Notes under the pieces: generated by a model
Databases searched by the model: none
What the model was told of the DNA's origin: nothing
What the model saw: only the letters and a program-made list of their open reading frames with translations
Shown: positions 23,261 to 46,198 of the stretch, one piece after another
Layout: the number at the start of each line of letters is the position of its first letter
Position numbering within the stretch: position 1 is the stretch's first letter
Source: an uncultured Muribaculaceae bacterium
Lineage (GTDB): Bacteria > Bacillota_I > Bacilli_A > RF39 > UBA660
NCBI GenBank assembly: GCA_964549115.1
Contig: CAZJTX010000001.1
Coordinates: forward strand, 56,494 to 120,493
Reading direction: 5' to 3'
Length of the DNA: 64,000 nt
Position numbers and translations under genes: made by a program

Positions 23261-23288
23261 ACAGGGTAAGTTATGTAAAGGAGTGGCT

Positions 23289-26872: not shown

Positions 26873-28414
26873 CTAAATTGATTTTTTCAATCTTTCCAAA
26901 TAATCTATACACTCTATCATTGCTCCATTTCCGAATTCCTTATTTAAGTATGCAATAAATGGATCAACTTCATCTCTTATTAATGTAATATTTAATTGGT
27001 CAAATTTTCTTAAAATTTTCTTTGCTATAAAGTAATCTATAGCTTCTACTTCTTCTCCCCCACAAGCAACATACACTGGAACAAATGTATTTAATTGTTT
27101 CATAATTCTGTTACCAAAAGCTATTCTAAAATGTTTAATAACATAATCATCCATTGCTCTAACTTTATCTATATTTGATTCTGAAACTTTTATTTGTTCT
27201 TCTGCTTCTTTAAATAATCCTTCTAAATAACTAGAATTAATATCCATTGCTGCCTGTTCTCTACTCTTAAATGGATCAATTCTACTATTGATATCTATCG
27301 GCATAGCTCTATCATAAACTTTATCCGTAACCATGAAGGTCGAGTCGTCGTTGTTAATTGTTCCGATATACCATAGATTTTCCGGTAGTATTAATTTACC
27401 ATTTTCTATTCTTTTAGGGTCATCTGGCCAAGCACTACTTACTACTTCAATTACCCACTCACTTCTTGATGGCATTTCATATATAGATAACATCTCCGCA
27501 AAGTAATACTCAACTCTCGCAATGTTCATCTCGTCTAATATAATTGTGTGAACATCGTCGTTAAATCCAGCTTCGTATAATTCCGCTAAAACATCTGATT
27601 CGTTAAACTTTTTCGTAAATTCGTTAAAGTATCCTAATAATTCTGTTTTATCTCTCCAAGACGGTTCAACTGATGCTATACATGCATCAACGTTAACAAA
27701 CTTACCCCAAGCATATGCTAGAGAGGTTTTACCAGTACCAGATATACCTTGTAAGATAATTAACTTACCACAAGCTAAACCCGCCATAAATGGTCTTAAA
27801 ATACTATAATCATAATACAATCTTAATTGACTAGCAGCGAATGCTCTAAAGTTGTCGGTTAATTCTTTTAAATTAAAATTATTACCATAATTTTTAACTT
27901 TATATCCTTTGTATTCTTCGTCTAATTTTGTAAGTTTAGTAAATCTAACATTAGCTAAATCTATTTCGCCTTCTTCTAATTCTTCTCCATCTTCAGTCAA
28001 CTGAACTTCTTCGTCATCAGGAGATAATCCTAGTTGCGAAACTTTCATTGCCATGATCTCATCTTTTTCTTTCATAAGTTTTTTAACTTGATGATTTAAA
28101 TCTCCGATTTCATTTAAAAGTTCTTCTTGATTATATTTTCCTCTTCCAAATTGAATGTATCTTTTAATACCCCAAAAGATTAACCAAAAAGTTAATCCTA
28201 CCATAGCAACTAAAACTAAAACAGTTAAACCCACTAATATCCATTCAACAGTTGTAAAACTTGTATTGTATGAGTTAAATACTTTTTGATAGTTCGTAAA
28301 CTTAAACATTTTAGCAAAGCCCGAACCTATTCCTTTAAATATAGTTATAACTCCATCAAAGAATATTGAGATAAACTCATAAAAGAATCTTACAAATGTG
28401 TGCATATTAATCAC
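26873..28414 (-). CDS. membrane-anchored AAA+ ATPase of the McrB/AAA_5 type
   Basis: 513 aa. One or two N-terminal TM helices followed by a coiled coil. Walker A GISGTGKTS, LDEMNIAR (DEiNRa-like) and NLWYIGTINNDDST…DRA (McrB-like). Confidence 0.55.
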   Translation of the reverse strand: MINMHTFVRFFYEFISIFFDGVITIFKGIGSGFAKMFKFTNYQKVFNSYNTSFTTVEWILVGLTVLVLVAMVGLTFWLIFWGIKRYIQFGRGKYNQEELLNEIGDLNHQVKKLMKEKDEIMAMKVSQLGLSPDDEEVQLTEDGEELEEGEIDLANVRFTKLTKLDEEYKGYKVKNYGNNFNLKELTDNFRAFAASQLRLYYDYSILRPFMAGLACGKLIILQGISGTGKTSLAYAWGKFVNVDACIASVEPSWRDKTELLGYFNEFTKKFNESDVLAELYEAGFNDDVHTIILDEMNIARVEYYFAEMLSIYEMPSRSEWVIEVVSSAWPDDPKRIENGKLILPENLWYIGTINNDDSTFMVTDKVYDRAMPIDINSRIDPFKSREQAAMDINSSYLEGLFKEAEEQIKVSESNIDKVRAMDDYVIKHFRIAFGNRIMKQLNTFVPVYVACGGEEVEAIDYFIAKKILRKFDQLNITLIRDEVDPFIAYLNKEFGNGAMIECIDYLERLKKSI

Positions 28415-30490: not shown

Positions 30491-30520
30491 AAAAAGAACA
30501 TCTTTTTTTTGATGTTCTTA
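30491..30520 (-). terminator. rho-independent terminator
   Basis: AAGAACATC-T8-GATGTTCTT. On the minus strand it is followed by a T-rich tract. Separates the 30518 gene from the 28407 gene. Confidence 0.55.
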
Positions 30521-31045
30521 AGCGTAATTTTCTTTTCCGTATCTTATTTCTACAACTAAAGCATATATTTGATATATAAATATTAGGAAACATGGTATGA
30601 GAATGACAAACAAGAATCCCATTGTAGACCCTACCACTGAGAGGAATGTACCCATAAACTCATAAGACTTCGTTGGTTGTCCTATTATAAATTCATCTTT
30701 AAATATACGTCCATTTTCAAACACTATTCGTTTATTGTCGCTATCTACTACCCCTAGTTTACCAAATTCAATATGAACGATCTTTCCCTCTACAACATAA
30801 ACAAACATTTCTTTGCCTATTTTATAATCTTGTAATTTTTTACTCTCCGTTAAAACTAAAGACCCTTTTTTAAACTTTTCTGAAGAATTTTGAGTATTAA
30901 TTAATACTAATGACGTATCCCCAAATTGAGTTACACCATATTTATTTCTATAAATTAATACTAAAGCCATCGCCGTAGCAAATATAAAAAATGCTAAGAC
31001 TAATAAACCTACAAAAAACGTTTTTACTTTCTTTAATATCTTCAT
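30518..31045 (-). CDS. SipW-like paralog with degenerate serine box (probable pseudo-peptidase)
   Basis: 175 aa. Same TM/ectodomain/TM architecture and a conserved His region (KIVHIEFG), but the SGSMxP box is replaced by INTQNSSEK. Confidence 0.4.
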   Translation of the reverse strand: MKILKKVKTFFVGLLVLAFFIFATAMALVLIYRNKYGVTQFGDTSLVLINTQNSSEKFKKGSLVLTESKKLQDYKIGKEMFVYVVEGKIVHIEFGKLGVVDSDNKRIVFENGRIFKDEFIIGQPTKSYEFMGTFLSVVGSTMGFLFVILIPCFLIFIYQIYALVVEIRYGKENYA

Positions 31046-31103: not shown

Positions 31104-32000
31104 TCATGGACACATTTTTAACTCAATAATTGTAAAGTCTTCTACTTTAATAATATTATTTATGTCTAAATTAATAAATTTGTACAATTTAGACGATTTT
31201 TTATTTATTTTAAAATGTACTTCGTTAATAAAACCAGTTGGATCTTCTTCGTAATCTAAAAAGTTATCTAAATCTTCGTCTATCTTTATAGTGTTTTTAT
31301 CCCAATCCAAGCTGTAGCATTTATCTTCATTAAATGTATTTATTATATACACTTCATCAAAGTCAGTTTTATGATTTATATCAATTATTAAGTCTTCTAG
31401 TTCTTGATCAACCCTCATTAAATAAAACGTTCCTTTTAATACTTTTTTATATGGACTAGTAGACTCCACTTTTATTAAAACTTCAACCTGATCTAATTGA
31501 TAGTTTTCATTTGTTGATTTAACATTAAAATAAATTTCATCTTCCACTTTTTCTTTATGCCATTCATATCCTTCTTGATTACATCTATCAACATTATGAG
31601 ACGACACATCTACCTCATCAATATTATTCACACAGTAATCGTTTTTATCTAAAGATAAAGTTAATTCATCCGCATCTGTGCCATTAATACTACAAGTCGC
31701 ATGACTAGACGCTTCCCCTAATACTTCACAAGTTACATTATAAGAAATATCTAAGTCTGTTATATCGCTACCTTCAAAGTTTTTAATATTAAAGTAAATA
31801 TCCTCACCTTGCCAGTAATTAAAATGATTGTCGATTCCCTTTTTTGTTAAATAATCACTTTCAAAATGAAATTCATTTGATACTACATAATGAGTCCACA
31901 TTTTGTTATATACATATCTACTAAAAGTAAATGATATATACATTGATGATATTGCTAGTAGTATCAATAGAACGAATAATGGTTTTGATTTTAATTTCAT
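31104..32000 (-). CDS. secreted protein with SipW-cognate-like signal (FTFSRYVYN)
   Basis: 298 aa. N-terminal anchor followed by an acidic, Cys-containing beta-rich domain. Confidence 0.4.
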   Translation of the reverse strand: MKLKSKPLFVLLILLAISSMYISFTFSRYVYNKMWTHYVVSNEFHFESDYLTKKGIDNHFNYWQGEDIYFNIKNFEGSDITDLDISYNVTCEVLGEASSHATCSINGTDADELTLSLDKNDYCVNNIDEVDVSSHNVDRCNQEGYEWHKEKVEDEIYFNVKSTNENYQLDQVEVLIKVESTSPYKKVLKGTFYLMRVDQELEDLIIDINHKTDFDEVYIINTFNEDKCYSLDWDKNTIKIDEDLDNFLDYEEDPTGFINEVHFKINKKSSKLYKFINLDINNIIKVEDFTIIELKMCP

Positions 32001-32002
32001 AT

Positions 32003-32557
32003 TTAATCTTCCTTCTTTTGCCAGCTATTTATATTTAATTGAATAAAATCTGCTAAATCTTGATATTGTAAATCATTATACTCTTCTGGAAATATTATTT
32101 TAAGTTTATATACGTCTTCCTTAGCTAATTTATATTGTAGTAACATATTATCTGTTTCGCATACTAACTCATTTTTGTCATTACGATCAAAATCATCTTC
32201 ATTACAATCCATTACTAAAGTCTCAGTTTCATCTTCAACATTATATAACAGGATTTCTAGTGGAATGAAATGATATGTTTTTATAGTAATTTTATACTCA
32301 ACATCAATATCACTCAATTTGCTATCTTCATTATTTTTAACATTAAATATATATTCTTTTTCCATACCTGGTGAAATATTATTAACCGGCAATTCAAAAT
32401 CCTCCACTGTGCTTGCTTCAAATACAAACTTAGCAAAGCTAGGATTATCTGACTCCATTACAATTCCACTTTTAAAATATGAGTATGTTGCTCCGGCTCC
32501 TATACTTAAAAGGTTTAAAAATACTATCATAAATATTATTTTATATTTTCTTTTCAT
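32003..32557 (-). CDS. TasA/camelysin-like small secreted protein
   Basis: 184 aa. Signal ending GAGATYSYFKSG (the GTyAyFsD consensus). YIFNVKNNEDSKLSDIDVEY matches the TasA FQFENNGSL block. Confidence 0.6.
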   Translation of the reverse strand: MKRKYKIIFMIVFLNLLSIGAGATYSYFKSGIVMESDNPSFAKFVFEASTVEDFELPVNNISPGMEKEYIFNVKNNEDSKLSDIDVEYKITIKTYHFIPLEILLYNVEDETETLVMDCNEDDFDRNDKNELVCETDNMLLQYKLAKEDVYKLKIIFPEEYNDLQYQDLADFIQLNINSWQKKED

Positions 32558-32560
32558 ACA

Positions 32561-35500
32561 TCACCTTACTATGAATACCTTTTCTATAGTATTTATTTTT
32601 GTATTATCGTTATAAAACTCAAACCTTAATTTATATGAATTATAATCTAAGTTAGATGTATTAAACTCTAGATCTAATTGGTTAAATAAATGAAATGGCG
32701 ATTCATATAATACTGGGTTTTTAAATGCATAATATACATTATTAGCAATTAATTCTAAATTGTTTGATACATAATTGTTTATATTTATTAAGGTGTACTC
32801 TTGGTTATACGCCGATAACTCTTTTTTCTCATATAACGACACTCTTATATTAGGATTAACAACTGATGTATTTAATGATATTTTATAATTTATAGTATCT
32901 TGTAATAATTCTTTTGTTATCAAGTTTTTATCACCACTTACACTATAAATATAAGTATTAACTATTTCATTATTTAATACTCTTACTGGTATTAATATAT
33001 CTTCTTTTATATATTTGTCTCCGAACAAACCATCATTTGATGCAAATAATGTTAATTTTAAATTATATAAACCTTCACTTAAGTTATTATTATCAGCCAA
33101 TGTTATTATTTCTAAGTCATTAATAGAATTAACAACATTATTATTTAATCTAATTCTAAACATTCCATTTTTATCCGGATAATAAGTTTTCCCATCTACT
33201 TTTATTTGCATATTTTTTAAATATTTAACATCTACAATGTTGTTGTTTTTTACAAACGATACTTCCATTCCTAACTTTTTATTAAATAATCTTGTATCAT
33301 ACACTTCCATTAAATTTAACAATTTATAATCTATCTTAGTATCTAATTCTATATTAGTAATAGAGTTACTATTATAAATTATTTCTTCTTCAAAATCAGT
33401 AGTAATAGTTATTTCTTCTCTATAATCATTAGAGGTTATTATATTGTATAATTTAACGTCTTTATTTAGGGTATATCTCATTATATCGTCATTTGTATCG
33501 TACACTCTTAAACGAGCTCTAAAGTCTTCTATATCGTCGTTTATAGTGGCGTTATTAAAATGTAACGTAATAGTAAAATCTTCATTTACTTCATTATTTT
33601 TATAATAGTTATCTTCTTCATAATAATCTTTAGTTGATCCAACTTCTTTAAAGTCTTCAAATGAGTATACTGCTTCTTTTTCACATTCTAAATCTAAAAT
33701 ATCACAACTATTATTATATCCATATAAATCATCACTAGTTGATACTTTATAGTAATATTTTTTATTATTAATATTGTCCTCTAATTTTATATAAGTTCCT
33801 ACTGGTAATAAATAATTAGTGACTAGCACATGTTTTTCTACCTCGTGATATAAATAATCACTAAAGTATGTAAATTCTAATTTTATTTCTGATTTATTGC
33901 TAATATTAGAAATATTATAAACATTATTTAAATTATATCCTTCATATAAAATATAGTCAGTATTTAAGTATAAGTTTTTACCATCTATATCGGTTATTTT
34001 TACATATACTATGTGTTTACCTTCTTCTTCTATATTTATTCCATCGACATACTCATCCCAGCTGCTTACACTCATTGACGCTAATGCTTTAATTGTCTTT
34101 TTAGATTCAGTAACGTGATAATAAGCGCTTACAATGTCGCTTCCAAGCTCTAAGTCAATTGTTTCATTTTTATGTATATATATAGTTTTAGGACTATTAT
34201 TATAATCTCCCCATACATAATTATTTAATTTTAAGTTTGTTCCTTCATTAGATTGATCTAATACCAAAAAGTCAGTGTTAGAGTAATATTCATTGTCGTT
34301 ATAGTCTATAGTTTTAACATATATTACATATGTACCTTCTTCTTCTATTTTAACAATATCATTATACTCAGTCCATGTATCTATACTTTTTATATCCTCT
34401 AAAAACAACGCTTCTTCAGTATCAGAAATATAATAATATATTTTCTTAGAAGGGTTTAGAGCATCTAAATCCTCTATGTTAAAAGTAATATTAGATGAGA
34501 AGTTATAATAATCTAACTCCATACTATAATTAGTCCAAGTATAAATACTTGAGTTTATACTAACTAAAGAATCTTTTAAATCATCTATAAATAGTATTGG
34601 CAATATACCTTCATCGTATACCCATACATTTTCATCGTTTGTTTCTATGTCATTAAAATTAATAAATTCATCATATAATAAATCATCTTTAATATCTTCA
34701 TCAATTAATATGTCTTCTAACAAAGCATAGTTGAACTCACCGATTAATAATCCGTTATTAACATGATCTTCTTCTTTTGTAGTATAAGAATTTGACACTA
34801 CTACATCTGTGTCTATTATATTGTTAATTAAATGGTCTTCTGAATTACTAATTACATGATATAAATTAATTTCATCTGAGTTATAAACATTACCAATCAA
34901 ACTAGATTTTAGAGATGAATTCAATACTCCATCATTATAAGATTTATATATATTTGATTCTAATGATTCATCTATAGTGTTTATTAATCCTGCTGTATTG
35001 TGATTAGAATGTATAAAACCTTTGTTATAACTTCTTTTTATATCAAAAGAGCCTCTTACAAGAGATATTAATCCACTTGAGTTATAATCTCCGATTATTC
35101 TTCCCTTGTTTATAACGTTTTCTAACACTACATTATTAGCATAACCAACAATACCGCCTGTATGGGTATTTTTATATATTATTTCATATCTTAAATTAGA
35201 TAATTTTAACTCTCCTTCTAATAAAGAAGGCTCTATTTCTAAATTTAGAGATTCATATAAATTTTGGTTAAAGTTTAATTCAAAGTTTTTAGTTAACACA
35301 GATTCATTATTAATTTTCAAATCAACTGATTGACTAGTATTAATTAAATCCATAGTTCCATAAAGGGTTGTTTTTACTATGTCTCCATCTTTTAATAATA
35401 AGTCATTATCTATTAATATTTCATCTGTTATAAATAAATTATTTAAAGAAGTTGTATAGTCTTCCAAATCTATACTTTCAATTATTTCATCTGATTCATT

Positions 35501-36187
35501 TCCTAATACTATTCCATCGAATAATATGTTTTTTAAATTAGATGATGATGAACTAGACGCAATACCTCCGGTTATATAACCACCATTAATAATAGTATTT
35601 TCAACATATAGGTTTTCTATATTTCCTTCTAAGTTTGTAAAAAGACCTACCTCATCTTCTTCACTTGCTATAAAAAGACCATATATTCTAAAATAACTGC
35701 CATCTAAATTACCTTTAAAATTATTTAGTGTATTAAAGTTATTTAAAAGTCCTACAACATCTTCTTTTAATAAATCATCGTAATATTCATTTGTATTATT
35801 TTTAATATAATATTTATTATCGTTTAATATATAAATTAAACCATCTTCTTCATCGTATCCAAATATACCATGATTTAAAACTATATTGTTACTAATTTTA
35901 AAATACTCATCTTCGTAGTTTGTATTATTTAATTCCTCAGCAAAGAAAGCTAATTCACTACCATTAGATATAATGTATGGATCAGTTATTGAACCATCAC
36001 CTTTTTTATACTTAGTCGCCACTGTTCCATCCCAAACTGAAGTAGTTACTATACTAGCTCTATTTTTAAATCTTGCCGCAGTTGGAATAACTATAAATAT
36101 AGTAAGCATTAAAAGAAGTACACTGGATAGTGTAATTATTAAAGTTTTATTGTTTTTTATTAAATCTTTAAACCTCTTTTTATACAT
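32561..36187 (-). CDS. giant surface adhesin-like protein with GLUG repeats and SipW-cognate-type signal
   Basis: 1208 aa. N-terminal TM helix ending IPTAARFKNRAS. HTGGIVGYANNVV…SSGLISLVRG…TAGLINTI are GLUG-type repeats. Extremely N/Y/D-rich. Lowest GC in the window. Confidence 0.55.
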   Translation of the reverse strand: MYKKRFKDLIKNNKTLIITLSSVLLLMLTIFIVIPTAARFKNRASIVTTSVWDGTVATKYKKGDGSITDPYIISNGSELAFFAEELNNTNYEDEYFKISNNIVLNHGIFGYDEEDGLIYILNDNKYYIKNNTNEYYDDLLKEDVVGLLNNFNTLNNFKGNLDGSYFRIYGLFIASEEDEVGLFTNLEGNIENLYVENTIINGGYITGGIASSSSSSNLKNILFDGIVLGNESDEIIESIDLEDYTTSLNNLFITDEILIDNDLLLKDGDIVKTTLYGTMDLINTSQSVDLKINNESVLTKNFELNFNQNLYESLNLEIEPSLLEGELKLSNLRYEIIYKNTHTGGIVGYANNVVLENVINKGRIIGDYNSSGLISLVRGSFDIKRSYNKGFIHSNHNTAGLINTIDESLESNIYKSYNDGVLNSSLKSSLIGNVYNSDEINLYHVISNSEDHLINNIIDTDVVVSNSYTTKEEDHVNNGLLIGEFNYALLEDILIDEDIKDDLLYDEFINFNDIETNDENVWVYDEGILPILFIDDLKDSLVSINSSIYTWTNYSMELDYYNFSSNITFNIEDLDALNPSKKIYYYISDTEEALFLEDIKSIDTWTEYNDIVKIEEEGTYVIYVKTIDYNDNEYYSNTDFLVLDQSNEGTNLKLNNYVWGDYNNSPKTIYIHKNETIDLELGSDIVSAYYHVTESKKTIKALASMSVSSWDEYVDGINIEEEGKHIVYVKITDIDGKNLYLNTDYILYEGYNLNNVYNISNISNKSEIKLEFTYFSDYLYHEVEKHVLVTNYLLPVGTYIKLEDNINNKKYYYKVSTSDDLYGYNNSCDILDLECEKEAVYSFEDFKEVGSTKDYYEEDNYYKNNEVNEDFTITLHFNNATINDDIEDFRARLRVYDTNDDIMRYTLNKDVKLYNIITSNDYREEITITTDFEEEIIYNSNSITNIELDTKIDYKLLNLMEVYDTRLFNKKLGMEVSFVKNNNIVDVKYLKNMQIKVDGKTYYPDKNGMFRIRLNNNVVNSINDLEIITLADNNNLSEGLYNLKLTLFASNDGLFGDKYIKEDILIPVRVLNNEIVNTYIYSVSGDKNLITKELLQDTINYKISLNTSVVNPNIRVSLYEKKELSAYNQEYTLININNYVSNNLELIANNVYYAFKNPVLYESPFHLFNQLDLEFNTSNLDYNSYKLRFEFYNDNTKINTIEKVFIVR

Positions 36188-36264
36188 ATAATTATCCTAC
36201 TCGCTTACTATTATATCTATATATATAATAGCATATAATACATTTTAATAAAACTACTATCGCA

Positions 36265-36288
36265 TAAAAAAAGAGTGAATAATCACTC
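36265..36288 (-). terminator. rho-independent terminator after paralog A
   Basis: On the minus strand: GAGTGA-TTAT-TCACTC followed by T8. Confidence 0.6.
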
Positions 36289-36326
36289 AATTTTTATTAT
36301 TTATTTTATTAAGGATCTAAAAGTTA

Positions 36327-37844
36327 TTAACTAACAATTACTTTTAATAATCTATGACCCCAGTTTTCAGCTGCATCTTCAACAGAATATAGTACGTAGT
36401 ATGTTCCTGCTTTCGCTAAGTTTACTGTTCCTGCTTTTGTTACGTCAGCATCTGTTAGATTTGTATCCACATTATCAGTTACTTCAGCTTCTGGTAACAG
36501 ATCTTCTAAGTCTCCTTCTGTACCTAACGCTATTTCAATTTCATCATTTTCTAAATATGAGCCATCTCCAGCTAAGAATTTAATTTCTGGTGCTGTTGTA
36601 TCTGATGCTCCAGGTCCTGCTCCTTGGTTAAGTGCTGGTCCTTCATAGCCTGAATCTCCAGGATATAGTTGTTGTTTTGAGAATCCAAATTTAACTGAAA
36701 TTTTTCTTCCAATTGCTGCAAAGTCATAGTTATCTATGTCTTGTCCTTCTAGGTATATGTATACTCTTACTTTAGTAATACTTGCTGGTTCAAGTCTCAT
36801 GAATTCTGGTCTTAATCTACCTCTCATTAATTTCATTGTATCTGTGAAATATTCAAATTCTTCTACGAACTCGCTATTAGCTTCGTATGTATTAAATGCT
36901 TTACCATCATAAATGTTAACGTTATCACCTGATCCAATTACTTTTTGCGCTACATATGTTGGATAACCAATACCATCTATCACTTCTTCACATTCGCCAG
37001 AATATGAATCTGTTTTAGTAACATCCGCACCTGTTCTTGCCGCACAGTTGGTTGCATAATAACTTATTGCATGAGTCTCATGATTTCTATCATTTGGTTC
37101 CCAAATTTGTGCATCTCTACAAATTCCAGTTACGTTATCATCACCCGTACAAGTAATTCCCGTTACAACTTCTGCATCTAATTCTTCTAATGCTGAAACT
37201 CTTCCGATTTGAGCAAATGCTACACGTACTGAGTTTTCAATTCCTGAACCTGCTACGCCGCCGTCTCCTGCATCTGGTGCCGATTCTTCAGTTACAGTTA
37301 CCGATGAATCAGGAGCTAGATAAATTGCTTCTTCGCCTAAAATATCTAGAGCTTTTAGATATTGATTACCTGAGCTATTTTTAACAAATAAATCAAATAC
37401 AACATATCCATCTGCTTCTTTATCACCTTTATTTTGAACTTCACTAACCATTAGTCTTAGTCCACCCGGTGTTCCTTCCGGTACAGCGGTTAAACTGGCT
37501 TTTTCATATAGAACTAGTCTAGATGAGGTTTGATCAATTTTACCTGCCGTTGACATTGGTATTAAACCACGTCCAGCCCAATTATTAGTATTACCTTCAT
37601 AGACAGTATCGGTGTCGTTAAAGGTTTCCTTACTAATTGCTACTGTTGTGTCAAAATTCTCGCCGTCAAACGATAATAACAAGCCATCAGCTGCTGCTAT
37701 TTCAATATCGAACGATGTTACGTTGACTGTTTGCATTCCTATAAACCATGCAAATGTTGCTACCAATAATACGATTGCACTAAGTGCACTAATACCTATT
37801 AGGTTTCTAACCCTTTTAGAGTGTTGAGGGTTTTCTTTTTTCAT
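36327..37844 (-). CDS. paralog A of the FAWFIGMQ/WLEGQD surface-protein family with C-terminal DUF5011 Ig-like domain
   Basis: 505 aa. Anchor …LLVATFAWFIGMQ. Shared motifs IPMSTAGKID, GYVVFDLFVKN, SVRVAFAQIGRV, GICRDAQIWEPND, KVRVYIYLEGQDIDNYD and SVKFGFSKQ. C-terminal Ig-like block TAPEIKF…GTYYVLYSVEDAAEN. Confidence 0.6.
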   Translation of the reverse strand: MKKENPQHSKRVRNLIGISALSAIVLLVATFAWFIGMQTVNVTSFDIEIAAADGLLLSFDGENFDTTVAISKETFNDTDTVYEGNTNNWAGRGLIPMSTAGKIDQTSSRLVLYEKASLTAVPEGTPGGLRLMVSEVQNKGDKEADGYVVFDLFVKNSSGNQYLKALDILGEEAIYLAPDSSVTVTEESAPDAGDGGVAGSGIENSVRVAFAQIGRVSALEELDAEVVTGITCTGDDNVTGICRDAQIWEPNDRNHETHAISYYATNCAARTGADVTKTDSYSGECEEVIDGIGYPTYVAQKVIGSGDNVNIYDGKAFNTYEANSEFVEEFEYFTDTMKLMRGRLRPEFMRLEPASITKVRVYIYLEGQDIDNYDFAAIGRKISVKFGFSKQQLYPGDSGYEGPALNQGAGPGASDTTAPEIKFLAGDGSYLENDEIEIALGTEGDLEDLLPEAEVTDNVDTNLTDADVTKAGTVNLAKAGTYYVLYSVEDAAENWGHRLLKVIVS

Positions 37845-37897
37845 ACTTTTTTCTCCTTCTTTCCTTTATTTTGAATAGTCTCTCTACTATTATATTA

Positions 37898-37925
37898 ATT
37901 TTATCATATCATTTGATTTTGTCAA
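37898..37925 (-). promoter_or_regulatory. sigma-A-type promoter of paralog A
   Basis: On the minus strand: TTGACA, a 16 nt spacer, then TAAAAT. The same architecture recurs upstream of paralog B. Confidence 0.35.
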
Positions 37926-37938
37926 TATTATTTGACGT

Positions 37939-39576
37939 TTATTCTGTTTTTTGAGTCTTTAATATTTTATTAGTTTCAGTTACAAACCAAATTTGTTCAA
38001 CATCGATTTTACTTTCTTCTATTATTTTTATTCTAAGCAGTAAATCCAGTTTCTCTAAAAGTAAATCAATGTCGCCTTCTTCAAAGTCCTCTTCTGTAAC
38101 ATTTATGTTTTCTAATCTATATTTATTAACTATAGTACTTTTCAAGTTATTATCTTCAAATACTAAAGCTCCTTTTGTAACAATGTTTGTTGTTTCTTTA
38201 GCGTAAGCATCAAAGTTATCGCTAATTTTCATTAAATCAGAATATGTTTCTAGGTCCATTAATTTTTTAATTACATCTTTTTTATAATAAGAATGGCTAT
38301 GATAAAAGTTCATTAATTCCGAAATAGTTAGAGCCTTGTTTAACATTGATAATACATTTATTGTGAAAAACTCATTATCTTCCTTTATATATAGATCATA
38401 TGTTAAATTAGCTAACTTATTAGACTCAATTTTTAATTGTTTTACTTCATAATTAGTCTTATTATCATTTAAGATTGTATCTTTTTTAAATATAGTATTG
38501 TTAATCTTTGCTAATTTACGTTCGTTCTTTTTAATGTCTTTGTTAATCTCTTTAATCTTTTTTAAATGTAAATTAACTCTTTTTTTGTCTCCAATTTGTT
38601 CTAGTTCTTTTATATATTCTTGTTTAAAATTATTTACAATAGGTAAAAAAGTCATATAATTCTTTAACTCAACTACATTTGTTCTTAGTTTTTCTACTGA
38701 AGAATAAAACTTTTCCAATTTTTGTTTATCATCCATATCCAATGCTTCGATGGATAGTGTTGTATATGCTGAAGTTCGGTTTTTACTTTCTTCAAAGAAA
38801 CTATTAACATCAGCTTCTCCGCTTTTAGCTAAATCAATTATGTCCCAAATAGTTTCGTTTTGAGTTAATAACAGTTCTCTTGAAGCTTCTTTTAGTTTAT
38901 CAATACATTCTTGATAAGTTTTAATCTTTTCAGCTTGCATAGACTTTGTTTGTTTATCTTTGATATAAGCATCAAACTTTTTGGCATTATCTTTTACTAA
39001 TTTTCTAAAAGTTAATTCTATGTGTTTTACTATTTCTGGGTTTAACCAGTATATTTGTTCAAACACTTTATTTAATTTAGTGAAATTCTTTTCTTCTTGG
39101 GATCTTTCTTTTAAGAACGCTTTCATGTAATCATGTACATATGAGGTTAACTTAAAGTCCGATGACACTAATTTAATATCAACTTTTTCAAATATTACTA
39201 ATAAGTCTTCTAATATTCGATTAAGTGATTTAAATTCAAAATCAGTATAATTGCTTAACTCATAGAATAAATTATCAAAATTTAATTTTTCGTAATATGT
39301 ATTACTTGGGTTAAGTAACATTTTTAATTCTTCAAGTTTTTTAACCTTTTCAATTAATTCTTCATTTTTACGAGATTCTTTTTTAGATAGTATTTTTTTA
39401 GTTTTAGCTTCTAAATATCTTTTTACTTGATCTTCATATTCTTCGTATTTAGCATGTATTTCATCTATCTTTTTATTTTTATTCTTTTTATTAGTTTTCG
39501 TTCTAACAGGAAGAGATGTTATTAAGGTGGTTTTAGCAGCTATATCTTCTTCTATAAACTCTAAAAAATTACTCAT
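37939..39576 (-). CDS. cytoplasmic coiled-coil protein
   Basis: 545 aa. No TM helix or signal peptide. K/E-rich heptad-like segments. Embedded between surface-protein paralogs. Confidence 0.4.
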   Translation of the reverse strand: MSNFLEFIEEDIAAKTTLITSLPVRTKTNKKNKNKKIDEIHAKYEEYEDQVKRYLEAKTKKILSKKESRKNEELIEKVKKLEELKMLLNPSNTYYEKLNFDNLFYELSNYTDFEFKSLNRILEDLLVIFEKVDIKLVSSDFKLTSYVHDYMKAFLKERSQEEKNFTKLNKVFEQIYWLNPEIVKHIELTFRKLVKDNAKKFDAYIKDKQTKSMQAEKIKTYQECIDKLKEASRELLLTQNETIWDIIDLAKSGEADVNSFFEESKNRTSAYTTLSIEALDMDDKQKLEKFYSSVEKLRTNVVELKNYMTFLPIVNNFKQEYIKELEQIGDKKRVNLHLKKIKEINKDIKKNERKLAKINNTIFKKDTILNDNKTNYEVKQLKIESNKLANLTYDLYIKEDNEFFTINVLSMLNKALTISELMNFYHSHSYYKKDVIKKLMDLETYSDLMKISDNFDAYAKETTNIVTKGALVFEDNNLKSTIVNKYRLENINVTEEDFEEGDIDLLLEKLDLLLRIKIIEESKIDVEQIWFVTETNKILKTQKTE

Positions 39577-39707
39577 GATTCTTCCTCTTCTATTTTAGAA
39601 TCTTCTAATGTTTTAATAAATTCAACAATGTCATTATATAGTTTAATTAAGTCAGTTAAACTTAATACTGACATGTCATAATCAACTTTTTTTACTTCCT
39701 TTTTCAT
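39573..39707 (-). CDS. small ORF (44 aa) translationally coupled to the coiled-coil gene
   Basis: MKKEVKKVDYDMSVLSLTDLIKLYNDIVEFIKTLEDSKIEEEES. RBS GGTGGA lies 5 nt upstream. Its TGA stop overlaps the ATG of the downstream gene (ATGA). It is below the ORF-track length cutoff. Confidence 0.4.
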   Translation of the reverse strand: MKKEVKKVDYDMSVLSLTDLIKLYNDIVEFIKTLEDSKIEEEES

Positions 39708-39801
39708 CTATCCACCTTTTATCCTTAAATTAATTAAGGGCAACCAACTAGATTACCCTTAATAATTTTATATTTCTAACATAATCAATAGTTAGTATTT
39801 A

Positions 39802-41319
39802 TTAACTTACAATAACTGTTCTATAAACTCTAACAGCTCTGTTTCCTGCCCAGTCACTTACATCATAAGCTACGTAATATGTTCCTGCTTTAGATGTATC
39901 TACCGGATTTATAACTTGGATTCTATATGTTATGTCACCGTCAACATCATCTTCTGCTGTTGCGCCCGCATCAATATAGTCATCATTTAAATCAACGTTT
40001 ACTGTTTCTTCGCCTTCTAGTGTTATAACTGGTTTTGTTGTGTCTTCAACTTCTGGACGAGGTCCCTCATAACCGAAGTCGTCTCCAGTCATTCTTTGTT
40101 TTGTAAATCCAAATTGAACTGATATTCTTTTACCGATAAATGATAAATCATAGTTATCAATATCTTGACCTTCTAAGAAAACATATACTCTTACTTTAGT
40201 AATACTATTTGGAGCAAGTGTCATGAAAGCTGGTCTATTAACACTTTGTAAATCTCTATGTGTGTCTGTGAAATATGGATATGCTTTTAATTTATTATTT
40301 GTTATTGCTTCCATGTGTCCGTTATAAGCTTCACCATCATAAACGTTTACATGATCTGATACTGTTATAACATCTTGTACAGCATATGTTGGATAAGCTG
40401 CATCTTCTTCAATTAATCCACATGCGTTTTCCGAATATGAATCTTCATCATATACATCTATATCTGGAGTTTCGTCTACTCTTTCTCTACAGTTTGTTTC
40501 ATAATAATTGATTGCGCTTACAACGTGCTTTGTATCATTTGGTTCCCAAATTTGTGCATCTCTACAAATTCCGGTTATTCCATTATCAACATCAGGTTGT
40601 CCACCGTCTCCCACATTACATGTGATTCCGGTAATTTTATCTTGATCAGTTTCGGTTCCGATAACTCTTCCGATTTGAGCAAATGCTACTCTAATTGCGT
40701 TTTCAATGCCTGTATCTTCTTCTCCAGCTTCTGCTACTTCAACTTTTGAACCTGCACCTGCTTCAACGCCTTCATCTCTGTCTGTAATTAGATAAATTGC
40801 TTCTTCGTCTAAAAGATCTCTATCTTCAATATAAGCTGTTGATCCAGTATTTTTCACAAATAAATCAAACGCCACATAACCGGCTTGTTCCGTTTGGCTT
40901 TGTTCGTGGTTATTTACTCGACTACTAATTAATCTAAATCCACCTGGTCCTGTTGCTGGTACTGGTGTATGACTTGCTTTTTCAAACAATTTTAGTCTTG
41001 AAGCTTCTAAGTCAATTTCACCTACTGACGACATTGGAATTAAACCATGTGTTCCGCCCCAACTATTAGTGTTACCTTCATATGAATCTATATTAAAATT
41101 ATCTTCATTTATAGTAACTGTTGTGTCCCATTTCCTTCCATCTAATGATAGCATCAGGCCATCTACAACTGCTACTTCAATATCGAATGAAGTTACAGTA
41201 ACTGTTTGCATTCCTATAAACCATGCAAATGTTGCCACTAATAAGACAATTGCACTTAGTGCACTTATACCTACTAGATTTCTTACACGATTATCGTGTC
41301 TTTGATTTTTCTTGTTCAT
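39802..41319 (-). CDS. paralog B of the FAWFIGMQ/WLEGQD family with DUF5011 domain
   Basis: 505 aa. The N-terminal 80 aa are about 80% identical to paralog A. Same motif set. C-terminus PVITLEG…GTYYVAYDVSDWAGN. Confidence 0.6.
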   Translation of the reverse strand: MNKKNQRHDNRVRNLVGISALSAIVLLVATFAWFIGMQTVTVTSFDIEVAVVDGLMLSLDGRKWDTTVTINEDNFNIDSYEGNTNSWGGTHGLIPMSSVGEIDLEASRLKLFEKASHTPVPATGPGGFRLISSRVNNHEQSQTEQAGYVAFDLFVKNTGSTAYIEDRDLLDEEAIYLITDRDEGVEAGAGSKVEVAEAGEEDTGIENAIRVAFAQIGRVIGTETDQDKITGITCNVGDGGQPDVDNGITGICRDAQIWEPNDTKHVVSAINYYETNCRERVDETPDIDVYDEDSYSENACGLIEEDAAYPTYAVQDVITVSDHVNVYDGEAYNGHMEAITNNKLKAYPYFTDTHRDLQSVNRPAFMTLAPNSITKVRVYVFLEGQDIDNYDLSFIGKRISVQFGFTKQRMTGDDFGYEGPRPEVEDTTKPVITLEGEETVNVDLNDDYIDAGATAEDDVDGDITYRIQVINPVDTSKAGTYYVAYDVSDWAGNRAVRVYRTVIVS

Positions 41320-41374
41320 CTTTCTCCCTCTCTTTTGTGAACTTTTGTAAAGTCCTCTTTTCTACTCTAATTAA

Positions 41375-41402
41375 AGTTTATCACATTACCATTTTTTGTC
41401 AA
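41375..41402 (-). promoter_or_regulatory. sigma-A-type promoter of paralog B
   Basis: On the minus strand: TTGACA, a 16 nt spacer, then TAAACT. It is embedded in the same TTTGTCAATAaTAaTTGAC element found upstream of paralog A. Confidence 0.35.
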
Positions 41403-41430
41403 TAATAATTGACACAAATTAAAGTCTTTT

Positions 41431-42450
41431 TTAAAAATCTATATACCCCGCTAAGTCTTTTAATAAATCTATAGCAAGGAATATTGGTGCCCCCTCTGAG
41501 TTTGTTTCCAAACTATCTATATCTTGACCTTCTAACCAAACATAAATTCTCATTTTAGTAATTCCATTTGGTATTTGAAATATTGGATCAATGAATTGAG
41601 ATTCCATTATTGTTTCTTGAAATTGGAAATGTTCAGTATCTAAAGGTATTCCCGATCCTTCATGACCATTGGCATACTCTAGTCTTCTACCTTCTTTTAT
41701 AATAGCGTATGTGGGTGATATTTCTCCATCTACTAATGTAACACCATAATCTGTATAAGCTCTTTCTATTGAAAGCGGTGAATGTTTTATTTTATTTGGT
41801 TCATATATAACTGCCGCACAATCATTATTACATTTCAAGTTTTGAATATTTCTTATTTCATCATTTGATGAAGTGCTTCCTATTTTTAAAAATCCGAACC
41901 TTATAGAGTTAATAATACCATCCATCTCTATTCTTGATTCTTCATCCACGTCATCACCAAAATCTATATATGTTCCCTCATCTATATATAAGTTGTCGCT
42001 TTTAGGTGAACCACTCACATTTTTTAAAAATATATCAAATGCTAAATATGATTTATATAAATTAGATGAGTCCTCTGGCATATGAGCAGTATTTAAGAAA
42101 CGGTAAAGTTTCCTATCTTTATCTCTTGCTTTAACTAATGTTCCTTCATATATTTCAAACTTATCTTGGTTGGGATGCTTTATCCCTATTGTAGATATTG
42201 GCCACAGTCCTTTAGCAGCCCATTGATTAGTGTTCGTTGGGTATCTTGTTTTTAAATTATCTATAATTGATTTTGAAGTAATTTCGACCGAATCTGAAAA
42301 ATCGATTCCGTCTAAAGAAATAAATAAACCACTATTACTAGATACGTTCATTTCAAAGAATTTAATTTTAACATTCAAAGAAACAGAAAACCATGCATAA
42401 GTAACAAAGATTAGAAGCACTGTTGTTAAAAACAGTAGTGCTAAAACCAT
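41431..42450 (-). CDS. paralog C (short, no DUF5011) of the same family
   Basis: 339 aa. Contains FVTYAWFSVS, GLWPISTIGI, SYLAFDIFLKN, INSIRFGFLKIG and KMRIYVWLEGQDIDSLE. The ATG at 42450 has no SD. A non-canonical ATA start at 42504, 5 nt after AGGAG, would add a basic N-terminus as in the other paralogs. Confidence 0.5.
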   Translation of the reverse strand: MVLALLFLTTVLLIFVTYAWFSVSLNVKIKFFEMNVSSNSGLFISLDGIDFSDSVEITSKSIIDNLKTRYPTNTNQWAAKGLWPISTIGIKHPNQDKFEIYEGTLVKARDKDRKLYRFLNTAHMPEDSSNLYKSYLAFDIFLKNVSGSPKSDNLYIDEGTYIDFGDDVDEESRIEMDGIINSIRFGFLKIGSTSSNDEIRNIQNLKCNNDCAAVIYEPNKIKHSPLSIERAYTDYGVTLVDGEISPTYAIIKEGRRLEYANGHEGSGIPLDTEHFQFQETIMESQFIDPIFQIPNGITKMRIYVWLEGQDIDSLETNSEGAPIFLAIDLLKDLAGYIDF

Positions 42451-42512
42451 TGGCTTTTCTTTAAATTTATTTTTAAGATCTTTTAATTTTACTTCTTTTT
42501 TTATGATAACTC

Positions 42513-43955
42513 CTAATCTTCTACTATGACTGTTCTAATAACTTCTTCTGCCCAGTTACCTGCCCAGTCTCTTACGTTGTATCTAACTACATATGTACCC
42601 TCTACATTTGTATTTACATGGTTTTGAACAACAATATGTTCAGTTATATCTCCTTCTAAATTATCATCTGCCGTTGCACCTTCATCTGTATATGTCGAAC
42701 CAGTTGCTATACGTACAATCGGGTCTCCTATTAATGTAATTACAGGAGGAGTAACGTCTCTTGCTGGTGCTATATCTGGACCATCATAATCGAAGTCTTC
42801 CTCGGTTAAACGATCTTTGGTAAATCCAAAATGAACTGATATCCTTTTACCTATTGCAGCATAATCATAATTGTCAATATCTTGACCCTCTATATAAATA
42901 TATACCCTTACTTTAGTAATACTATTTGGTGCAAGTGTCATAAATGTTGGTCTTCTAACACCAGGCATATCTCTGTTTGTATCTGTAAAATATGGATATT
43001 TCATAACTTTAGGACTTGGAGCATAACTGTTATATTCTTGACCATCGTATATATCAACATTATCTGATGACATTAATTCTTGTCTTATAGCATATGTCGG
43101 ATAATATGTTTCATCTTCTAATTGGTGACACTTATCTGATGAATATGCTGTTGGCATATGTATTTGGGTTCCTACCCTTCTTCTACATGTTGCATCATAA
43201 AATTTAATTGCGTTTTCAACATGATATATATCATTTGGTTCCCAAATTTGACCTATTCTACAAATTCCTGTAATGCCGTCCTTAATTGAAGGAACTCCAA
43301 CATCATTCGCGTTACATGTTATTGATGTAATTAACTCTTGATCTGTTACAGCTGCTGATACTCTTCCGATTTGAGCAAAAGCTACTCTTACTGAATTTTC
43401 TATACCAGTATTTGCTATACCAGTCTCGGCAACATTAACTTCTGATTCAATAGATAAGTATATTGCTTCTTCATTTAATACATCGTCTATTTCAAAATAT
43501 TTTGGTCCCGAGAAATTTTTAATAAATAAGTCAAACGCTACATAACCGTCCGCTTCGGCTTCACCAGTATTGTGAACTCTACTTGCCATAATTCTATGTC
43601 CACCCGAAGTAGCTGTAAAACTAGATTTTTCAAAAAATACTAGCCTTGATGAATTAACATCAACTTCACCAATAGTAGACATTGGTATAAGTCCTCTTCC
43701 ACCCCACCTATTCGTATGTCCTGGATAAGACACTTCATCTACTGTTTCTTTAGTTATGCTCACAGTTGTGTTCCATTTTTTACCATCAAGTGACAATAAC
43801 AAACTATCCGTTGCAGCTATTTCAATATCAAATGATGTCACACTAACTATTTGCATTCCTATAAACCAAGCAAATGTTGTTACAAGCAATAATATAGCTG
43901 TTATTGTTGTAACTGTTATTAATTTCTTTAATCTTTTCGTATCTTTTTTAGTCAT
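42513..43955 (-). CDS. paralog D with DUF5011 domain
   Basis: 480 aa. Contains TTFAWFIGMQ, GYVAFDLFIKN, KVRVYIYIEGQDIDNYD and PVITLIG…GTYVVRYNVRDWAGN. Confidence 0.6.
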   Translation of the reverse strand: MTKKDTKRLKKLITVTTITAILLLVTTFAWFIGMQIVSVTSFDIEIAATDSLLLSLDGKKWNTTVSITKETVDEVSYPGHTNRWGGRGLIPMSTIGEVDVNSSRLVFFEKSSFTATSGGHRIMASRVHNTGEAEADGYVAFDLFIKNFSGPKYFEIDDVLNEEAIYLSIESEVNVAETGIANTGIENSVRVAFAQIGRVSAAVTDQELITSITCNANDVGVPSIKDGITGICRIGQIWEPNDIYHVENAIKFYDATCRRRVGTQIHMPTAYSSDKCHQLEDETYYPTYAIRQELMSSDNVDIYDGQEYNSYAPSPKVMKYPYFTDTNRDMPGVRRPTFMTLAPNSITKVRVYIYIEGQDIDNYDYAAIGKRISVHFGFTKDRLTEEDFDYDGPDIAPARDVTPPVITLIGDPIVRIATGSTYTDEGATADDNLEGDITEHIVVQNHVNTNVEGTYVVRYNVRDWAGNWAEEVIRTVIVED

Positions 43956-43965
43956 TTGCTATCTC

Positions 43966-45405
43966 CTATTCAACTATTACAGTTCTAGTAACTTCATCTG
44001 CCCAGTTACCTGCCCAGTCTCTTACGTTATATCTAACTATATATGTTCCTGTTTCCGCAGTGTTGACAGGATTATTTACAACTATATAAGGAGTTATATC
44101 TCCGTCTATATTATCACTTGCTGTTGCACCTAAGTCGTCATATGTTGATCCTTGATTAATAGTTATTTCATCTAAACCATTTAATAATATAATTGGTTTA
44201 ATTGTATCTCTTAGAGGTTCTAAATTCGGTCCTTCGTATCCAATATCGTCTTCAGTAAATCTTTGTTTTGTAAATCCGAATTTAACTGATAATTTTCTTC
44301 CTATTGAAGCATAATCATAATTATCTACATCTTGACCTTCTAAATATACATATACTCTTACTTTAGTAATACTATTTGGAGCCAAATACATAATAGGTAG
44401 TCTTTCAACACCTTCTAATTCTTTATCTGTATCTGTAAAATAAGGAACGCTAAATAACTTAGTACTACCCTCATATGTATTATATGCTGGTCCATCGTAT
44501 ATATTTACATAATCACTTGATGCAATAGGTTCACTAACTACATATGTTGGGTACGCTACTCCATCAACTATAGGATTACAAGTTCCACCATAAGATTCTG
44601 GTAATCTTGAATTTCCTCCAGTTCTTTTTAAACAATGAGTATCATACCAATCTATAGCTCCCGCCACGTGCTTAGTATCATTTGGTTCCCAAATTGATGC
44701 AGCTCTACATATTCCTGTTACTCCATCAACTATACTAGGTTTACCTTCTCCATCTGGATTACATGATATAGAAGCAATTTTTTCTTGATCTAATTCTGTA
44801 CCTATAACTCTTCCGATTTGAGCAAAAGCTACACGTACCGAATTTTCTAGTCCTGTATCTTCAACTCCACCATCTATAGCAACTTCTACAGATGAATCAA
44901 CAGATAAATAAATTCCTTCTTCATCTAATAAATTATATTCTGGAGTATAAGCACTTCCTGTCATATTTCTAACAAACAAGTCAAATACTACATAACCATC
45001 TGCTTCTTTGTCTCCTGTATTTTCTACTCTACTTGCCATTAAACTATGGCCACCAGGTATAGCAGTTATTCCTGCCTTTTCAAAAAGCATTAATCTAGAT
45101 GTATTCACATCAATTTGTCCAATTGTTGACATCGGTTCTAATCCGCCGCCTGACCACCAATTAGTATGATTTGGATATGATACATTTTCTAAATTTTCTC
45201 GGTTAATACTTACCGTAGTATCCCAGCTCACTCCATCTAGTGATAATAATAAGTTTTCAGCTGCTGCAATATCAATATCAAATGATGATACCATTACTGA
45301 TTGCATTCCAATAAACCAACCAAATGCAGTAAAGATTAATACTACCGCACTTAAAGCCATTAGAATCAACTGACGTCTTATTTTAATTGTACTTTCTTTC
45401 TTCAT
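43966..45405 (-). CDS. paralog E with DUF5011 domain
   Basis: 479 aa. Contains TAFGWFIGMQ, GYVVFDLFVRN, KVRVYVYLEGQDVDNYD and PIILLNG…GTYIVRYNVRDWAGN. Confidence 0.6.
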   Translation of the reverse strand: MKKESTIKIRRQLILMALSAVVLIFTAFGWFIGMQSVMVSSFDIDIAAAENLLLSLDGVSWDTTVSINRENLENVSYPNHTNWWSGGGLEPMSTIGQIDVNTSRLMLFEKAGITAIPGGHSLMASRVENTGDKEADGYVVFDLFVRNMTGSAYTPEYNLLDEEGIYLSVDSSVEVAIDGGVEDTGLENSVRVAFAQIGRVIGTELDQEKIASISCNPDGEGKPSIVDGVTGICRAASIWEPNDTKHVAGAIDWYDTHCLKRTGGNSRLPESYGGTCNPIVDGVAYPTYVVSEPIASSDYVNIYDGPAYNTYEGSTKLFSVPYFTDTDKELEGVERLPIMYLAPNSITKVRVYVYLEGQDVDNYDYASIGRKLSVKFGFTKQRFTEDDIGYEGPNLEPLRDTIKPIILLNGLDEITINQGSTYDDLGATASDNIDGDITPYIVVNNPVNTAETGTYIVRYNVRDWAGNWADEVTRTVIVE

Positions 45406-45414
45406 TTGTCCTCC

Positions 45415-46110
45415 TTATTTTTCAATTAACTCTGAGTTAAATTGCATACTTATTTTAATATGTCCCCCAATTAAATTATCTGTGCAATCTGGGTCTCTAC
45501 CTTCTAACCAGATTACAACTGTATATTTATCTATATCTCCTGGTGAAAAATGTTTTACTTGCTCCATCATTACCCAATCATCTTTTTTAAAAGGTTCAGT
45601 TTCAGGCTCTGGCCTTCCGTTTCTTCCCATTTTTGCAAATGTTGTTTCTTCACCATTTCTAAATATTTTTATTCTTATTGCTTCGTCCACATTTTTTATA
45701 ACATTTTCTATATTAACCTCATACCAATAGTCTGAAACGTTTTCTCCGGTATTTTCAACAAAAAATGTATAAGAAACATAATTGTCTCCATTATTAGATC
45801 CACCTTCGTGTTCTTCTAAACCAGGTGGCAACCATTTACCAGACATATTATCAAATGATTCTAATGATTCAGCAAATAATTCAGAGCGGTATACTTTATA
45901 AGTCGGATCATCGTATATGATGATTCCCTTTTCATAATATAGATTTCTATCTAACATAATCGTAAAACCCCAGCTGGTGTATAAAACACTAATAACTAGA
46001 TACAAAATAAAAAGCAAAAACAAAACGCCAACGACTACCCACTTAAGTCGTTTTCGTCTTTTTCGCTTCTTGTTTACAGCAATGGCTTTTTCACGAATGT
46101 CTTTATCCAT
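45415..46110 (-). CDS. paralog F (most divergent and shortest) of the same family
   Basis: 231 aa. Basic N-terminus, a TM helix ending TSWGFTIML, and a C-terminal VVIWLEGRDPDCTDN…KISMQFNSE matching the family end-block. Confidence 0.45.
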   Translation of the reverse strand: MDKDIREKAIAVNKKRKRRKRLKWVVVGVLFLLFILYLVISVLYTSWGFTIMLDRNLYYEKGIIIYDDPTYKVYRSELFAESLESFDNMSGKWLPPGLEEHEGGSNNGDNYVSYTFFVENTGENVSDYWYEVNIENVIKNVDEAIRIKIFRNGEETTFAKMGRNGRPEPETEPFKKDDWVMMEQVKHFSPGDIDKYTVVIWLEGRDPDCTDNLIGGHIKISMQFNSELIEK

Positions 46111-46198
46111 ATCTTTCCCTTTACTATACTCTACTCTTATAATAATTTTATCACAGGATTGCGTATTGTCAATTATTTCAATAAAAAAGACTAGTTTT

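Follow-up and report, generated by a model that had tools for sequence, protein, structure and literature searches.

A run of six related genes in contig CAZJTX010000001.1, filed under an uncultured Muribaculaceae bacterium, raises the question of what their predicted surface proteins build. The genes, A to F, lie on the minus strand of the 64,000-nucleotide (64-kb) stretch analysed here (the window), where a preliminary reading made without database searches (the sequence-only reading) had correctly placed six open reading frames (ORFs). They form the front part of a cluster of about 23 kb (23226–46110), whose genes are named as in Table 1. The answer that we consider probable, on balance, is that this CoCoPALM-type cluster builds a heteromeric surface fibre or pilus and that the exported products of the six genes are its structural subunits.

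The four long paralogs, A, B, D and E, share 52–58% mutual identity (52–54% in a MAFFT alignment), and in the same alignment identity to the family is about 30% for C and about 28% for F. All six proteins could be aligned, as the proposal of a single family implied; the relationship between the long paralogs and C is certain, and the homology of F is of moderate confidence. The conserved blocks picked out earlier (IPMST.G.ID, GYVAFDLFVKN, GIENSVRVAFAQIGRV, IWEPND, ITKVRVY.YLEGQDIDNYD and ISV.FGFTKQ) were reproduced by MAFFT and are present in A to E. When all 64 kb of the window are translated in six frames, the pattern [LIVMFW]EG[QR]D.D occurs exactly six times, once per family gene. When profiles of the long and C classes were compared with hhalign, they matched over their full length with 100% probability (E 4e-49). 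The F class matched the C class with 23% probability at default settings and with 68% (E 4.7e-5, 208 collinear columns) at a more global setting, and the F-class hidden Markov model also retrieves remote core proteins (E 6e-6 to 2e-4). These profile comparisons suggest, with moderate confidence, that F is a distant, reduced member of the family. Exactly four cysteines are conserved in each long paralog across the family and two in C, an even number that fits an extracellular, disulfide-bonded protein.

Searches of Pfam and NCBIfam returned no model covering the family core, in agreement with its initial description as unrecognised. The immunoglobulin (Ig)-like DUF5011 domain assigned at the outset to the C-terminus of the four long copies was recovered as PF16403 (Bact_surface_Ig-like, formerly DUF5011), which matches the long paralogs there above the gathering score; it ends B, D and E (E-value about 1e-17) and is weaker in A (1e-7), and C and F are without it. 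AlphaFold2 was run on B with a 92-sequence alignment and returned a model with a predicted local distance difference test score (pLDDT) of 88; a core-only model of residues 38–422 reached a pLDDT of 90.5 and a predicted template modelling score of 0.92. The core fold has no solved structural relative. In the model, residues 6–36 of B form a single long helix, which is followed by a self-contained fold.

In the 92 family members, the sequence TFA|WF or TYA|WF (the bar marks the predicted cut) is invariant or nearly so, with W33 and F34 invariant, and the segment right after the predicted cut is the most conserved stretch of the whole protein. Remote members keep 'STYAWF'. An anchor ending in (T/A)F(A/G)WF or a variant had been read in all six proteins; this stands for A, B and D (TFA|WF) and for E (AFG|WF), takes the form TYA|WF in C, and fails for F, whose orthologue consensus is '..giiYN.GnFsItLD' where the other classes read 'sTYAWFiGM'. 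The pattern T-x-[A/S]|x-[F/Y] also ends the signal helix of g407, t184, t298 and t224. Mature TasA starts at A28 in PDB 8aur, so that it is cut at TWA|AF, and a passage of PMC10269814 attributes the choice of SipW over LepB as the peptidase of TasA to the phenylalanine at P2'. The suggestion that the family proteins are SipW substrates gains from this likeness of T-[F/Y]-A|W-F to the TasA site, and from two archaeal-type peptidases and a TasA-like protein encoded downstream in the same cluster. The long and C proteins are thus supported, from their sequences, as predicted SipW-type substrates.

The likeness to TasA lies in the neighbouring proteins rather than in the family itself. When compared by hhalign with a TasA-family profile built from 117 sequences, t184 matched with 93.9% probability (E 1.6e-7) in an alignment covering the signal and the first strands as well as the L.PGD..F.V.N motif, and g407 with 38%. 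Profile searches of the PDB with the t184 and g407 classes missed TasA, and the t184 link comes from the profile-profile comparison only. The long, C and F profiles all scored below 1% probability against the same TasA profile, and PF12389 (Peptidase_M73, TasA/camelysin) did not match the family proteins at E values up to 0.1. Homology of these three classes to TasA by direct sequence comparison was therefore rejected, none having been found, and the early remark that the core is not obviously camelysin-like is upheld at the level of sequence. By eye only, the family strand 'F.LF.KN.SG' and the final strand 'ISV.FGF.KQ' resemble 'FQFENNGS' and 'IKLQFSFEATQ' of TasA. A C-terminal sorting signal of the LPxTG type is absent from every protein of the locus, and a sortase-dependent pilus was rejected for this reason.

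An alternative explanation is that the proteins do not polymerise and serve as adhesins or a coat, either held by an uncleaved membrane anchor or cut by SipW into monomers that are released or retained, with C-terminal domains that bind and paralogs that vary the specificity. The modelled helix followed by a complete fold would suit such a protein, as would the absence of a cleavage motif from F and the variation of the C-terminal domains, which resembles that of adhesins. We nevertheless regard this explanation as rather unlikely. The sequence T-[F/Y]-A|W-F is invariant and dedicated SipW-type peptidases lie in the same locus; conservation is highest just after the predicted cut, which is hard to explain for a simple anchor; and distinct subunit classes (F, long, C, giant, t184, t298, g407 and t224) follow one another in a fixed order, as in pilus operons.

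That order rests on 73 loci, fetched by their family members from contigs that represent one genome per species, whose ORFs were compared by BLAST with all cluster proteins; 54 contigs among these carry a different isolate label of a metagenome-assembled genome (MAG). The recurring arrangement is F, one to seven long paralogs, C, cc545, in some cases a further long paralog, giant, t184, t298, p175, sip675, the McrB-like gene, the DUF2357 gene, sip183, g407 and, on the opposite strand, t224. The module opens with F in nearly all loci, the C class always precedes the coiled-coil gene, and cc545 is present in 57 of the first 75 loci. In a reverse test, 80 metagenome loci were fetched with the McrB-like protein alone. 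Here sip675 lies upstream of the McrB-like gene in 47 of 51 cases and the DUF2357 gene downstream in 66 of 67, followed by sip183, g407 and t224 and then by F and a long or C gene; all 80 loci lie in the cluster. Because loci chosen by the GTPase alone show the same neighbours, chance insertion of the McrB/DUF2357 pair as an unrelated restriction system was rejected. In the window the cluster is flanked by housekeeping genes (ftsY/ylxM and RNase J).

The McrB-like protein matches McrB in NCBIfam (9e-5) and McrB structures in the PDB (7e-4). Its transmembrane (TM) helix at residues 58–76 is followed by a heptad-like stretch, with a weak Pfam match to DivIC/FtsB at residues 70–137 (E 0.52). The GTPase signature GTINNDDST can be read as N-x-D plus D, as described for CoCoPALM, or as N-x-x-D, and HMMER aligns it ungapped to NTAD of McrB. 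In the partner protein no PD-(D/E)xK nuclease domain or motif was detected. CoCoPALM was the name given to a clade of McrB-like GTPases that carry, as a fusion, an FtsB-like segment of TM helix and coiled coil, in one paragraph that deferred the analysis and proposed a role in pilus assembly (Bell et al., eLife 2024, PMC11090510); no later work on it was found in a literature search. The cluster agrees with that description in its McrB-like GTPase, which has a TM helix and coiled coil at the N-terminus, in the nuclease-less McrC with a DUF2357 domain next to it, and in its signal-peptidase genes, and by this context it is a CoCoPALM-type system.

The same pair of genes bears on a further explanation, in which the cluster is primarily a conflict or defence system derived from McrBC and the secreted paralogs are its surface sensors, decoys or effectors. 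No genes of the cluster are more conserved than those for the McrB-like GTPase and the DUF2357 McrC-like protein, both of them integral parts of it, the GTPase domain matches the PADLOC candidate defence model PDC-M26A (1.9e-37), and CoCoNuTs, which are relatives of the clade, are predicted restriction systems (PMC11090510). This explanation appears improbable to us, however, given the lack of a nuclease in the McrC-like protein and the membrane tether of the GTPase. The remaining genes, about 15, encode exported proteins and signal peptidases, the locus lies between ftsY/ylxM and RNase J and not in a defence island, and a role in pilus assembly was the proposal of the very authors who defined the clade.

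Sip183 and sip675, signal peptidases of the archaeal/ER type (S26B), score 78.6 and 66.8 bits against TIGR02228 (cutoff 51.85) and match the SipW model at 1e-14 to 1e-17. The sip675 extension matches no known domain; in a compact locus (L156, 3355–4374) it is encoded on its own, directly upstream of the gene for the McrB-like GTPase, a Rosetta-stone hint of an interaction between peptidase and GTPase. The SipW homologue p175, which hhalign matches to sip183 at 94.8%, lacks the catalytic serine (SGSM) and histidine (THR) motifs and is kept in at least 34 loci; it is a pseudo-peptidase that probably serves as a structural or regulatory partner.

The history of the array is older than it had first appeared. 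A and B had been described as nearly identical over their first 80 or so codons, as expected of recent duplication or gene conversion; their amino-acid identity is 70% over codons 1–80 and 82% over codons 1–40, and third-position identity at identical codons is 64% over codons 1–80 and 60–77% elsewhere. Synonymous-site identity between them is thus flat along the gene, and recent conversion is unsupported. Nor is the array an expanding one, since the nearest relative lies in another genome for 140 of 168 long paralogs and in the same locus for the other 28. The four window paralogs each have a counterpart in a different genome (60–64%) that is closer to them than the remaining three are, and for three of the four the closest relative is the gene at the same position in one locus (L004). 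The duplications are therefore old and precede the species splits. Long-copy number ranges from 1 to 7 per genome, with recent copies in some lineages. C and F, taken at first for truncated, decayed copies, are 45–62% identical between species and hold fixed positions, which makes them conserved orthologous classes. The six genes do lie in a row, although the term tandem array needs one correction, as the 545-residue coiled-coil gene and a conserved 44-residue ORF split B from A. The paralog genes have a G+C content of about 33%, against 23–27% for the coiled-coil gene, the giant gene and their neighbours (window 36001–46000 and its flanks). Because the cluster is syntenic across species, this difference probably stems from an exported composition rich in Gly, Ala, Asp and Glu and not from foreign origin.

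These comparisons speak against a recently expanding, gene-converting cassette for antigenic variation, which we hold to be very improbable. It would account for four similar tandem paralogs, two of them with their own promoters and a common palindromic operator-like element, for the range of long-copy number between genomes and for the 28 paralogs whose nearest relative is a neighbour. The flat synonymous-site identity of A and B contradicts it, as do the greater similarity of each window paralog to its counterpart elsewhere and the absence of long identical tracts, none of which were seen between paralogs. Of the two roles first offered for the array, surface variation and a heteropolymeric fibre, the fibre is the best reading.

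The promoter-like sites upstream of A, B and F are the three best minus-strand sigma-70-like sites of the region. The upstream element that the sequence-only reading noticed before both A and B is the palindrome GTCAA-N6-TTGAC, found exactly twice in the window (37921–37936 and 41398–41413) where 0.02 occurrences are expected by chance, and it overlaps the -35 element of both sites. Outside this species the palindrome recurs in one locus only (L031), upstream of a long paralog that follows cc545; its form suggests a putative operator for a dimeric regulator. The predicted transcription units are F-E-D-C; B-s44-cc545; A, with a terminator-like hairpin; giant-t184-t298-p175, also with a hairpin; and sip675 through g407.

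If the family proteins are fibre subunits, a mechanism can be proposed by analogy with known filaments. The long and C proteins would be exported by Sec and then cut after T-[F/Y]-A by one of the archaeal-type peptidases of the locus, a cut that would free the conserved hydrophobic N-terminus WFIGMQTVxVTSFDIEIA. The freed N-terminus could then be inserted as a donor strand into the beta-sandwich of a neighbouring subunit, as in TasA, BsaA, archaeal threads, bundling pili and cannulae, so that the family proteins may polymerise by strand donation. The result would be a heteropolymer with Ig-like or other C-terminal domains projecting outward. With no motif for cleavage, F may be retained in the membrane as a base or anchor; the giant protein would form the tip or act as an adhesin. 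From the cytoplasmic side, the pair of GTPase and McrC-like protein, the cytoplasmic domain of sip675 and the coiled-coil proteins might couple, gate or power processing and assembly.

Several points weigh against a fibre of this kind. The AlphaFold2 monomer is a complete and confident fold, which by itself gives no sign of a missing strand, and the family profiles are unlike that of TasA. To our knowledge, TasA-type fibres need no nucleoside triphosphatase and so offer no role for the GTPase module. Relatives of McrBC are typically defence systems, and the GTPase domain has its match to the PADLOC model. A bolder version of the fibre hypothesis, to which we give distinctly less credence, is that the F, long and C proteins are the pilins of an unvisualised class of Gram-positive filament, with a new fold, release of the SipW type, strand donation and a membrane-tethered, McrBC-derived GTPase complex that is linked to a peptidase by a cytoplasmic domain and drives or gates assembly or retraction. 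If true, this would be a nucleoside triphosphate-coupled filament machine unrelated to type IV, sortase and chaperone-usher pili, curli and passive TasA fibres.

Table 1. Genes and promoter-like sites of the cluster, in window coordinates (aa, amino acids).
Feature	Position	Strand	Description
Promoter-like site upstream of F	46145-46172	-	TTGACA-16-TAAAAT (with TG); start of the F-E-D-C unit
F	45415-46110	-	231 aa, F class; very basic N-terminus, one TM helix, small beta domain ending WLEGRDPDC
E	43966-45405	-	Long paralog, 479 aa; signal end AFG|WF; core and PF16403 Ig domain
D	42513-43955	-	Long paralog, 480 aa; signal end TFA|WF; core and PF16403 Ig domain
C	41431-42450	-	339 aa, C class; signal end TYA|WF; core without Ig domain
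Promoter-like site upstream of B	41375-41413	-	TTGACA-16-TAAACT (with TG), overlapped by palindrome GTCAATTATTATTGAC
B	39802-41319	-	Long paralog, 505 aa; own promoter; modelled with AlphaFold2
s44	39573-39707	-	Conserved 44-aa acidic helical ORF MKKEVKKVDYDMSVLSLTDLIKLYNDIVEFIKTLEDSKIEEEES; 4-nucleotide overlap with start of coiled-coil gene; translationally coupled
cc545	37939-39576	-	545-aa cytoplasmic coiled-coil protein; no TM helix, no signal peptide
Promoter-like site upstream of A	37898-37936	-	TTGACA-16-TAAAAT (with TG), overlapped by palindrome GTCAAATAATATTGAC
A	36327-37844	-	Long paralog, 505 aa; divergent Ig domain; own promoter; terminator-like hairpin at 36273-36288
giant	32561-36187	-	1208-aa secreted protein; N-terminal signal TAA|RF; candidate tip or adhesin
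t184	32003-32557	-	Small secreted TasA-like protein; signal end TYS|YF; L.PGD..F.V.N motif
t298	31104-32000	-	Secreted, related to t184; signal end TFS|RY
p175	30518-31045	-	SipW-like pseudo-peptidase, two TM helices; terminator-like hairpin at 30494-30519
sip675	28407-30434	-	Canonical SipW-type signal peptidase (TGSM, THRV, KGDAN) fused to a cytoplasmic extension of about 500 aa
McrB-like GTPase	26873-28414	-	513 aa; TM helix 58-76 and coiled coil; Walker A GISGTGKTS, Walker B IILDEMN, signature INNDDS
McrC-like	25721-26860	-	DUF2357 domain only (PF09823, 3.8e-10)
sip183	25170-25721	-	Second SipW-type signal peptidase; SGSM and THEV motifs; GL replaces the GD motif
g407	23929-25152	-	Secreted; signal end TLA|WF; TasA-like N-terminal motif and Cys-containing C-terminal domain
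t224	23226-23900	+	Small secreted protein; signal end TYS|RY; real start probably internal Met at about 23289

Two entries of the table call for comment. In more than 20 further loci tblastn detected s44, at 46–60% identity, immediately upstream of the counterpart of cc545, which marks it as a conserved small gene. For the McrB-like gene, the GTG given as its start is probably incorrect, as orthologues start at a methionine three codons downstream (consensus MNTFLRFFYEF), and the exact 513-residue sequence is absent from the protein collection searched. Elsewhere in the window, a gene at 19904–21460 on the plus strand encodes a protein of 518 residues with an N-terminal region of about 270 residues without assigned function, one TM helix and, at its C-terminus, a sortase domain; the gene is outside the conserved cluster, at a distance of 1.8 kb.

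Relatives of the family are widespread. In a collection of 5.8 billion proteins B has at least 1,793 relatives, all from metagenomes or MAGs, and the sole name that these carry is 'DUF5011 domain-containing protein'. A profile of the core alone retrieved 955 clusters at 50% identity with E values up to 1e-3 and 581 with E values up to 1e-10, and in these matches the core always starts near residue 30–35. Remote members begin with '...STYAWF(S/T)...' and finish with '...VWLEGQD.DC'; the core is constant, and the C-terminal domain is an Ig domain, an ALK/LTK glycine-rich domain (ALK_LTK_GRD), DUF6273, InlB B-repeats or none. The ALK/LTK glycine-rich domain is unusual in bacteria. It is the C-terminal passenger of one remote family member (P0135), and it is also found in a protein of 550 residues encoded in the window at 5458–7110 on the minus strand (PF12810, 6e-34). 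Another remote member (P0270) belongs to the compact cluster L156, which has one F gene and one core gene.

Genome matches carry the MAG labels Bacilli, Mollicutes, Tenericutes, Erysipelotrichia and Bacillota and come from digesters, the rumen, chicken, pig and human gut, and soil; the window also has matches in metagenome contigs, from farmland among others. At least 500 metagenome stretches encode relatives of the McrB-like GTPase, from sources that include the human gut, rumen, digesters and soil. The Bacilli-type cluster is also found in loci filed as Muribaculaceae, Ignavibacteriales or Actinomycetes MAGs (L004–L006, L012, L041 and others), and these labels are probably taxonomic mislabels or binning errors. 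In a further locus (L158) a remote member lies on a contig with sporulation genes (SpoVG, SipL, YunB) and is followed by a giant gene of 2299 codons, so that the family reaches spore-forming Clostridia-like organisms besides Mollicutes-like Bacilli.

A likely cargo or subunit family of CoCoPALM systems has thereby been identified, in hosts (uncultured Bacilli, Mollicutes-like and Erysipelotrichia MAGs) whose lineages have an essentially undescribed surface biology. The cluster unites donor-strand fibres of the SipW/TasA type with a nuclease-less GTPase of the McrBC type, two themes never connected experimentally. If the GTPase does act in assembly, this would be a new route to a Gram-positive appendage, in which a defence motor has been recruited to another job.

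Among the closest known systems is CoCoPALM itself, for which exported proteins are undescribed (PMC11090510); the present analysis adds the family of F, long and C proteins with its TasA-like partners, the giant and coiled-coil proteins, the pseudo-peptidase and the order of the genes. With McrBC of Escherichia coli the cluster shares a GTPase domain that aligns to McrB structures (E 7e-4) and a partner with the DUF2357 N-terminal domain of McrC, whereas here there is no DNA-binding domain and no nuclease, and the GTPase is tethered to the membrane in an export locus. The tapA-sipW-tasA operon of Bacillus subtilis and the sipW-tasA-calY operon of Bacillus cereus likewise place a dedicated archaeal-type peptidase beside its substrates, with signals that end in T-aromatic-A|x-F, and TasA fibres grow by donor-strand exchange (PMC9674648); of the proteins encoded here, one, t184, is detectably TasA-like. 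The sipW-bsaA-bsaB-bsaC operon of Clostridium perfringens (PMC7395162, PMC11580942) is likewise a SipW operon with several TasA-like paralogs, but it has no McrB/McrC module and its subunits are small. Relatives of BsaA and TasA form donor-strand filaments, and operons with several paralogs may yield heteropolymers (PMC11580942, a preprint). For the Bsa system it was proposed that the newest subunit keeps its signal-peptide anchor through strand exchange and is cut by SipW only afterwards, so that assembly is membrane-proximal (PMC11580942), a model that would transfer naturally to this locus. Sulfolobus threads (7pnb), the bundling pili of Pyrobaculum (PMC9245690) and the cannulae of Pyrodictium (PMC12518558) show similarity to the family below significance; archaeal donor-strand subunits have about 150–200 residues and no Ig passenger, and their loci have no GTPase module. 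The system is best regarded both as a new variant of the fibre systems of the SipW/TasA type and as the subunit part of CoCoPALM, hitherto unexplored.

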